Shown: one piece after another, positions 27,299 through 28,975 of the stretch
Numbering within the stretch: position 1 is the first letter of the stretch
Layout: the number at the start of each line of letters is the position of its first letter
Assembly (NCBI GenBank): GCA_030587475.2
Contig: JAUQYZ020000078.1
Location: 1 to 64,000, forward strand
DNA: 64,000 nucleotides
Reading direction: 5' to 3'
Source: Candidatus Sigynarchaeum calidifontis
GTDB taxonomy: Archaea; Asgardarchaeota; Lokiarchaeia; Sigyniarchaeales; Sigyniarchaeaceae
The notes under the pieces: model-generated
The model's database searches: none
What the model was told of the DNA's origin: nothing
What the model saw: the letters and a program-made list of their open reading frames with translations, nothing else
Made by a program: the position numbers and the translations under genes

Positions 27299-28975
27299 CT
27301 ATTGTGACAGTGAATCCCTTTCGAGCAGTTCCCCGGGAAGCAAAAGGAGCAAGTCCGACAAGGAAATCTTGGCACGGCTCGCGATCTGTGAAAAAATGTC
27401 TTCCAGGTGAAACTGGGTCCCGATAATGCCCTCCTTTTGCATCTGGGCGATGGCATTGAGAACACGTTGCTGGTTCGATGTTAGCAAATTTCGGAGCTCG
27501 TAGCTGATGTTGGCGAGGCGATAATTCATGTTAACATGGCTAACCGGCAGTGGCGTGAAAATATCGTCGTAAAGCTTCCGTCCCATGTCGTTGAAGACGT
27601 TTACCTCGCCGTTATAATTGTCTAGCTTGGAAGCAAATACATTTTCGAAAGAATCAATATATTGCTCGACTTTTTTCAAGATCTCTTCGGTCAATTCACG
27701 CAATGAATGGATGATGCATTTCACGCGATTGCCATGGGCGATCGTGAGATTCAAGCTGCCATATTTGATTTTTTCGACGTTTTTCTTCTCGTCCTGGCTG
27801 GTCGTGTACACTTGATTCCGTAAAATATCGAGCACGTGGAACATGCCGGAAAGCATCTCGATGTTGTCGATGCTCCCGACACCCATTTTCTCGTTTGGCA
27901 GGTGATAGAAGACCGGCTGGCTGGCAAATATGATGATAAGTTCCGTTATGGAGGAGAGCTCCTCTACGATGGCCTGCGTTTGGTGGATATCTACCTCGTG
28001 CAGCTCTTCCTGGAGCTCCCGCAGGACTGCCTTTGCTACGGGAAGATCTATACGCAAGTCGATAACAAGCTTGCTTAGGGATCGTGGTGCCAGGTATCTC
28101 CTCTTTTTTTCGAAGAGATCCGCGTGTTTCTTGCGCACGGACTCGACAGCTTCCTTGGAGACGCCTTCCACATTATTCAAGTCTTCCCACTCGTCCAGGA
28201 TGTCCTTGACAAACAATGGATCTAGTCCGTGCCGGATCATGAGATCCCGGTTGTATCCAAGGAAGTGCCGGCCTCCTTGATTCATCGCGCGCATGCAAAA
28301 AACCTCGTCGGCGATCAAGTACTTCAAACCTGTTTTTTTGTCCAGGAACTTCCAGGATTGTATATCCCTCTTGAGATTCAATATCTCGCTCCGCACGGTG
28401 TTTTTCGATAGTACTGCTCGCGTGTCACGCCGGTAAAGATCGACTGCACATGTCATTTCGAAAAACATGGATTCAATGCTCTTCTCGATGCCCTTGTTGT
28501 TCTGTACGTTCCATTCAATGAGGTGCGATTCAGCGGGCTTGAATGTCTTGGCGATAAAATGTTTTAACGCGACCATCCCGAAGTATGATACCTGACGGGG
28601 CAGGTCCTGGTTGATGGTTATGCCAATGATGGCAAGCGGCGGGCATACGAGTTTTTTCTCGAGAATTGCCTGAAAATAAGGGATGAAGTCCCCGAAATGC
28701 TCGTTGTTCTGGACGTTGATGATCAAGACGATGCAATCCGCGTCGCTGAATTCTTTCGGGATCGCGATCATCTCGAGGCTGGAAGGAAATGCAGCAAACG
28801 CCCGTATCAAGCAATCGGACACGTGGTACGGGTAGTAGAACATCCCCGACGTGCGGGGAAATTCGATGCGCGAGTTGAAGAATTGTTTGAAGAAGGGAAA
28901 CAATGCTTCCGTCTTCTCTCCCAGGAACACGAAGTTATACATCTGTTGCTTGACCTGGGTCTCGGTATCAGCCAT
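27299..28975 (-). CDS. Degenerate Ras/Rab-fold domain fused to a longin-like domain
   Basis: The N-terminal ~170 aa follow the Rab secondary-structure pattern without G-box residues. The C-terminal part has an Asgard longin-like pattern (MLSGMF..L...IKYG...F...F...L.NY.G....F). Confidence 0.6.
   Translation of the reverse strand: MADTETQVKQQMYNFVFLGEKTEALFPFFKQFFNSRIEFPRTSGMFYYPYHVSDCLIRAFAAFPSSLEMIAIPKEFSDADCIVLIINVQNNEHFGDFIPYFQAILEKKLVCPPLAIIGITINQDLPRQVSYFGMVALKHFIAKTFKPAESHLIEWNVQNNKGIEKSIESMFFEMTCAVDLYRRDTRAVLSKNTVRSEILNLKRDIQSWKFLDKKTGLKYLIADEVFCMRAMNQGGRHFLGYNRDLMIRHGLDPLFVKDILDEWEDLNNVEGVSKEAVESVRKKHADLFEKKRRYLAPRSLSKLVIDLRIDLPVAKAVLRELQEELHEVDIHQTQAIVEELSSITELIIIFASQPVFYHLPNEKMGVGSIDNIEMLSGMFHVLDILRNQVYTTSQDEKKNVEKIKYGSLNLTIAHGNRVKCIIHSLRELTEEILKKVEQYIDSFENVFASKLDNYNGEVNVFNDMGRKLYDDIFTPLPVSHVNMNYRLANISYELRNLLTSNQQRVLNAIAQMQKEGIIGTQFHLEDIFSQIASRAKISLSDLLLLLPGELLERDSLSQ

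Follow-up and report, generated by a model that had tools for sequence, protein, structure and literature searches.

PseudoGTPases are known regulators in eukaryotes. In one of them, AAGAB, a pseudoGTPase domain of class i contacts the sigma subunits of AP1/AP2, which have the longin fold (PMC12490416; PDB 9ddt). In Asgard archaea, small GTPases of the Rag-like/Arf-like class occur as fusions to longin/roadblock domains (Tran et al. 2024, PMC10933270), and structures of two Asgard Rag-type fusions, LokiRagO (8yl2) and LokiRagM (9m28), have been solved. Our search of the literature returned no paper describing a pseudoGTPase in Asgard archaea, or pairing pseudoGTPases with archaeal longins. We describe here P0001, a protein of 558 amino acids (aa) encoded on the minus strand at 27299..28975 of a 64,000-nucleotide stretch of Candidatus Sigynarchaeum calidifontis (contig JAUQYZ020000078.1, positions 1 to 64,000; hereafter the window). 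It combines a predicted G-domain fold that has lost its nucleotide-binding motifs with a helical, a longin and a winged-helix-like (WH) domain. While Asgard GTPase-longin fusions are known, the G-helical-longin-WH architecture is new, as is the kinship with the tails of giant surface proteins.

An AlphaFold2 model of P0001, built with an 18-sequence alignment, had a pLDDT of 86.5 and a pTM of 0.84; a separate model of residues 185-558 had a pLDDT of 86.6. We found no transmembrane (TM) segment (the highest 19-residue Kyte-Doolittle mean was 1.5), and, judged from its sequence, P0001 is a cytoplasmic protein. With P0001 as the query, the Pfam library gave no match. The gene and its parts are as follows.

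27299..28975, minus strand: whole gene of P0001, 558 aa; intact open reading frame (ORF) with an ATG start and 18 full-length orthologues
28424..28951, minus strand: putative pseudoGTPase domain, residues 9-184; fold of a Ras-superfamily G domain, devoid of G1-G5
28910..28921, minus strand: relic of the P-loop, G19-E20-K21-T22, from DSSP of the model and the alignment
27977..28420, minus strand: helical middle domain, residues 186-333, from the predicted model; weak helix-hairpin-helix, (HhH)2, matches
27545..27976, minus strand: longin domain, residues 334-477, from the predicted model
27308..27544, minus strand: C-terminal alpha/beta domain, residues 478-556; order of secondary-structure elements as in a winged helix

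Like the Asgard Rag-like fusions, P0001 has a Ras-superfamily G domain and a domain of the longin/roadblock fold in one chain, and it likewise comes from the Lokiarchaeia. Foldseek aligned it colinearly with RagA/RagC and LokiRagO over ~460 columns. The superposition was poor (root-mean-square deviation ~20 Å), and the domain arrangement of P0001 therefore differs from that of the Rag proteins. The Rag-like fusions keep working G motifs and carry the second domain directly after the G domain, whereas in P0001 all G motifs are lost, a 150-aa helical domain is interposed, a longin takes the place of the roadblock, and the chain has an additional winged-helix-like domain. The resemblance to AAGAB is of another kind: both have a G-domain fold without nucleotide-binding motifs, and AAGAB uses this fold to bind a partner of the longin/roadblock fold. 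However, the longin-fold partner of AAGAB is a separate protein, and no sequence relationship between AAGAB and P0001 was found. The contacts of SR-beta with the SRX domain of SR-alpha, and those of Rag with Ragulator, are nucleotide-dependent and formed between separate chains, unlike the single-chain arrangement of P0001. In comparison with the Rab family (Rab1, Rab3, Rab6, Rab7, Sec4/Ypt1; PF00071), P0001 is devoid of G1-G5 and of C-terminal prenylation cysteines, its G domain is internal to a 558-aa protein, and it scores under the Pfam cut-off.

We observed that residues 9-184 of the model form a G-domain fold, with a six-stranded sheet and five helices in the Ras order. The G1 P-loop (GxxxxGK[ST]) is absent from P0001, which has FLGEKTEAL at this site, as well as from all 18 orthologues and from a sister subfamily (described below). 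None of the other motifs (G2 Thr, G3 DxxG, G4 [NT]KxD and G5 SAx) is conserved in the orthologue alignment or in the sister subfamily; P0001 itself has AAFPSS at G3, GITIN at G4 and EWN at G5. According to DSSP of the model, the b1-a1 loop consists of two residues, G19 and E20, and on this model the P-loop would lack ~4 of the residues needed to enclose a phosphate. We infer from this shortening, together with the absence of G1-G5 from all relatives, that the domain does not bind nucleotide. A G-domain fold with degenerate nucleotide-binding motifs is the hallmark of class-i pseudoGTPases, and the N-domain is most likely one of these, unable to bind GTP or GDP.

Both the sequence and the fold of this domain support its homology to GTPases. 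The Pfam Ras model (PF00071) did not match P0001, and the best family member reached E 0.0031, under the gathering cut-off. When the full-length profile was compared with the PDB, Sec4, Rap2A and Rab5 ranked at the top with non-significant E-values. An N-domain profile made from both subfamilies matched Rab1 at E 5.2e-5, and nearly all of its 60 listed PDB matches were Rab or other Ras-type small GTPases. In hhalign, the N-domain matched the Rab-like G domains of this genome (86%, E 5e-6) and a 401-aa Asgard Gtr1/RagA-like family (94%, E 1e-7); the latter is a local match over b4-a4, and this family is the best sequence match to that part of the dead G domain. Asgard Gtr1/RagA-like relatives retain GxxxxGKT, DxxGQ and N/HKxD. 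The members of the 401-aa family (L021-L024, from G117, G159, G030 and G282; G and L codes denote other genomes and loci, and G000 is the genome of P0001) have an intact Gtr1/RagA-Arf-like G domain, preceded by an N-terminal extension of 95 aa and followed by ~130 aa that form a C-terminal domain. PF04670 (Rag/Gtr1) matched neither P0001 nor its family, and no kinship was detectable between the N-domain and a 209-aa Rag-like GTPase on contig C118 of the same genome. A true Rag architecture for P0001 was considered and rejected, since no roadblock domain directly follows the G domain.

A first-pass annotation of this gene, made from the letters alone, had proposed a Rab-like N-terminal scaffold without G-boxes. 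The predicted G-domain fold and the profile homology to Rab/Ras agree with the scaffold, and the G-boxes are indeed missing, in P0001 and also in all 18 orthologues and the sister subfamily. As for the label 'Rab', it is the best-scoring one in the PDB, but in pairwise profile comparison the match to the Asgard Gtr1/RagA-like family equals or exceeds that to the Asgard Rab-likes (94% against 86%), which makes 'Rab' a tentative label for the origin of the domain.

The longin domain is the best conserved part of P0001, with 31 of its 144 columns invariant, including the NYxGExxxF and DDIFTPLP motifs. In the model, it has the longin topology b-b-a-b-b-b-a-a, with a five-stranded sheet, one helix on one face and the two C-terminal helices on the other. 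A roadblock identity, guessed from secondary structure, was tried for these residues and rejected by the Z ranking in favour of longin. The domain resembles the longins of SNARE, adaptor, TRAPP and SRX proteins in general, and AP1 sigma3 (9ddt_B, TM-score 0.67) was among its Foldseek matches. Longins of the GTPase-activating protein (GAP) type (FLCN / SMCR8 / NPRL2) are marked by a GP motif (PMC12290439), located ahead of strand 2, and an arginine finger; in the P0001 family we found no support for this type beyond a subfamily-specific GQP. The model, Foldseek and the Z ranking thus all confirm the longin-like C-terminal half that the first-pass annotation had described, and the predicted structures hold a Ras-type N-domain and a longin domain as it had expected. 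Its more specific label, a domain of the guanine nucleotide exchange factor (GEF) type, goes beyond the general resemblance just mentioned. Its layout of a G-like and a longin domain was right but overlooked the helical and winged-helix-like domains, and the kinship of the longin-WH module with the cytoplasmic tails of giant surface proteins also escaped it.

The helical middle domain contains two helix-hairpin-helix-like motifs, HGLDPLFVKDIL and IDLPVAKAVL, and a search of the ESM Atlas with residues 186-332 returned no usable match. In residues 478-556, the order of secondary-structure elements in the predicted model fits a winged helix (a1-b1-a2-a3-b2-b3). Sequence searches with this domain gave no significant match, the hit to GerE (E 0.5) being noise.

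A word-indexed search of 5.8 billion proteins yielded 18 full-length orthologues with identities of 38-87%, all of them from Asgard metagenome-assembled genomes labelled Lokiarchaeota, Hodarchaeota, Promethearchaeota or Sigynarchaeota. An exhaustive phmmer search over 1.8 billion cluster representatives gave just 13 proteins with E <= 1e-3. Among these was a distant group of comparable length with ~21-25% identity to P0001, the sister subfamily, which we examined as P0021, P0027, P0029 and the proteins of G165, G307 and G309. A profile of the sister group matched positions 62-530 of P0001 at E 2.3e-34, and the two groups therefore form one superfamily. Three short proteins that matched the N-domain profile (P0034-P0036) were considered as stand-alone pseudoGTPases and rejected, since they are contig-end fragments of the sister subfamily. 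In species-representative genomes, the close subfamily is confined to the window's own taxonomic family (G000 and two of three others), and the order has a second family, in which 4 of 14 genomes carry the sister subfamily; no full-length copies were found elsewhere among ~400 genomes of the phylum. In both subfamilies the gene is found beside the rpl18e-rpl13-rps9 cluster or close to it, and the two therefore look like fast-diverged positional orthologues.

We further estimated the selection acting on the gene. Against the 87%-identical orthologue, dN/dS was 0.10 for the pseudoGTPase domain, 0.08 for the helical, 0.06 for the longin and 0.16 for the C-terminal domain. Against a 74%-identical orthologue, the pseudoGTPase domain gave 0.14, and over both comparisons the three remaining domains ranged from 0.06 to 0.19. 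All four domains are under purifying selection, and the pseudoGTPase domain is not decaying.

When the family profile was run over 301 genomes of the phylum, matches were found in 121. Nearly all of these were local, covering positions ~323-475 with some reaching 545, and they lay in ORFs mostly of 950-2100 aa. Profile matches in other proteins that span positions 325-545 indicate that the longin and winged-helix-like domains travel as one module. The tails of giant proteins are the closest sequence relatives of residues ~323-545 (E 1e-10 to 1e-5 per genome), and in 15 of 16 loci checked the longin match is preceded, at a distance of 11-25 residues, by a TM helix. These matches and their upstream TM helices identify the nearest kin of the module as cytoplasmic tails, in juxtamembrane position, of giant Lokiarchaeial surface proteins. 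A 2116-aa protein of G138 (L026:731-7081, on G138:C36) illustrates the layout, with an N-terminal anchor, an extracellular stretch of ~1620 aa, a TM helix and a longin tail; it had no Pfam match at all. The genome of P0001 has two giant surface proteins with a longin-WH tail, on contigs C118 and C157. That of a 1477-aa protein on contig C118 (G000:C118) matched by hhalign at E 2.9e-5 and has the N[YF]xGExxxFxxxG motif in common with P0001; the shorter form N[YF]xGExxxF is common to P0001 and the tails of the giant proteins, of which those of G138 and C118 are examples. The tails of the giant proteins are TM-tethered and have no G-like domain, whereas P0001 is a soluble protein with the dead G and helical domains in their stead. 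Longin-profile matches were present in 52 of 68 genomes of one Lokiarchaeial family, and in the giant-protein tails examined (L002-L017) the longin domain came first after the TM helix, often followed by a winged-helix-like domain.

On contig C118, the gene of the 1477-aa surface protein opens a same-strand row (L061:2149-8417) that continues with the gene of the 209-aa Gtr1/RagA-like GTPase and then that of a 358-aa protein, which has an N-terminal half of no assigned family and a canonical Rab-like GTPase at its C-terminal end. From its gene content, this row is a candidate receptor-tail/GTPase module. The Pfam Ras family had 58 matches above cut-off in this genome, which is 89% complete. 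Several of these sit in ORFs of 350-620 aa, and are therefore fused to other domains.

The neighbouring gene and the spacer between it and P0001 have the following features.

23370..27227, minus strand: downstream neighbour, a 1285-aa surface protein, from Pfam; same-strand adjacency in 5 of 6 subfamily loci
27259..27272, minus strand: TATA-box-like element AATATATATATTAA, in the 71-bp spacer before the downstream gene

The 1285-aa protein has beta-helix/NosD and TSP3 repeats, one TM helix and a 152-aa cytoplasmic tail with a terminal C4C4 RING-like finger. A giant RING-tailed surface-protein gene lies directly downstream on the same strand in G000, G301, L034 (87% identity), L035 (58%) and L036 (53%), and in L036 it is kept though the other neighbours differ. 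The spacer is 69-99 nt long, with a stop/start overlap in L036. Across the linked loci, P0001 is conserved down to 53% identity and the neighbour down to 39%. Just upstream in L036 is a second membrane protein with a RING tail (300 aa, multi-TM; L036:6928-7830). The tail motif, KHEVDxQTESEVxVFKKKExCIVCN...CPxCETKYCxRCAxALS...CWxCKNP (window 23370-23830, L036:6928-7830), is near-invariant between otherwise unrelated bodies, the beta-helix protein of 1285-1403 aa and the multi-TM protein of 300 aa. Copies of this tail number 11, 13 and 9 in the three genomes of the window's taxonomic family; of two sister-family genomes, one has no copy and the other a single one. A predicted complex of P0001 with residues 1134-1285 of the neighbour scored 0.00 with the partner's own fold uncertain, and it counts neither way. 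A run of ATATATAT is found at the same junction in L034, L035 and L036 also; this conserved spacer element suggests that the surface-protein gene has its own promoter, and the element AATATATATATTAA is likely to be its archaeal TATA box.

Together, these analyses lead us to favour the reading that P0001 is a nucleotide-independent adaptor of the class-i pseudoGTPase type, acting beneath the membrane in concert with longins and small GTPases (probability roughly 0.6). It would be a soluble adaptor of four domains, descended from the Asgard small-GTPase/longin fusion proteins, in which the dead G domain would serve as a permanent protein-binding surface instead of an on/off switch. Since its longin-WH module is of the surface-protein-tail type, P0001 most likely acts on the cytoplasmic side of the membrane. 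Docking may occur by longin-longin pairing or by longin-GTPase-like contacts, and its targets could be the longin tails of giant proteins or true small GTPases, for which the genome has at least 58 Ras-family genes. Several observations weigh on the other side. The nucleic-acid-binding-type motifs of the middle and C-terminal domains are left unexplained by an adaptor. The linkage of a longin tail with GTPase genes was seen once, on contig C118, and no Gtr1/RagA match was found near the giant genes in five other genomes. The neighbours of the most divergent orthologue (G302, 37% identity) and of the sister-subfamily loci are not conserved, and the RING-tail family is multi-copy (~9-13 per genome), hence the single conserved adjacency could be merely inherited. 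In this family, which belongs to one Lokiarchaeial order, a GTPase-longin fusion would have lost its motifs and become a module that is nonetheless strongly conserved. Homology links this dead-GTPase/longin module to the tails that giant surface proteins have inside the cell, and the family offers a route to the function of longin platforms where organelles are absent.

The conserved neighbour raises the possibility that P0001 is instead its dedicated cytoplasmic adaptor, for example in substrate presentation or regulation of a membrane-anchored tail resembling a ubiquitin ligase. We consider this rather unlikely, and accordingly the RING-tailed neighbour is only a tentative candidate partner as judged from gene order. 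The same-strand adjacency in five of six subfamily loci at the identities given above, the second RING-tailed protein beside P0001 in L036, and the expansion of the tail exactly in the genomic family of this subfamily, with its rarity in the sister lineage, are in its favour. However, the pairing is absent from the 37%-identical G302 orthologue and from all four sister-subfamily loci, the TATA-like spacer element suggests separate transcription, and the linked loci are all of one lineage, where adjacency may be inherited and not selected. The C118 row allows a further, speculative reading that we hold to be unlikely: in an Asgard layer of outside-in signalling, the giant surface proteins would offer a cytoplasmic longin-WH platform to Rab/Rag-like GTPases, and P0001 would be a soluble and permanently 'occupied' copy of that platform, with the longin-WH module covered by the dead G domain of the same chain, that competes with or bridges the receptor tails and the RING-tailed neighbour. 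If this were true, receptor-coupled small-GTPase signalling with a pseudoGTPase regulator would predate eukaryotes.

It is likewise unlikely that the longin is a catalytic platform, of the GEF or GAP type, for a true small GTPase, with the dead G domain as a built-in regulator or decoy. The unexplained motifs could mean that P0001 is a nucleic-acid-binding factor, whose (HhH)2-like middle and winged-helix-like end bind DNA or RNA while the dead G and longin domains serve for oligomerisation only. Weak (HhH)2 signals do recur, from the Topoisomerase V repeats in the PDB (E 0.038-0.058) and from Pfam PF21616 (Topo-V_HhH_2_2nd; E 0.0017, one family member), the C-terminal element order is that of a winged helix-turn-helix, and the gene is a positional neighbour of the ribosomal cluster in both subfamilies. 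Yet every such match is below significance, the orientation relative to the cluster varies, and the longin-WH module is found also on membrane-anchored surface-protein tails, an odd site for a DNA binder, so that we regard this reading as quite improbable. Still less credible to us is that the N-domain binds nucleotide non-canonically, as a class-ii or class-iii pseudoGTPase, and remains a switch. Most orthologues do have Lys/Arg in place of the P-loop lysine (GEK[T/A/K]), and many have an Asp at the D position of NKxD, but the P-loop is down to two residues, G2, G3, the N/K of G4 and G5 are lost in every member of both subfamilies, and the invariant aromatics Y131, F132 and W155 probably occupy the sites of the guanine-binding loops.

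Other genes around the family gave no functional lead. The neighbours of the G302 orthologue are URO-D, HAD, DUF599 and a small Zn-ribbon protein, and those of the sister subfamily are thioredoxin-like DUF255, HEAT-repeat and ribosomal proteins. The rpl18e-rpl13-rps9 cluster (window 19508-20751, plus strand) is 6.5 kb from the P0001 gene, and it adjoins the sister-subfamily genes in G165, G307 and G309. From this gene order, it appears that this lineage acquired an insertion of three genes, that of the RING-tailed surface protein among them, between the cluster and the P0001 gene.
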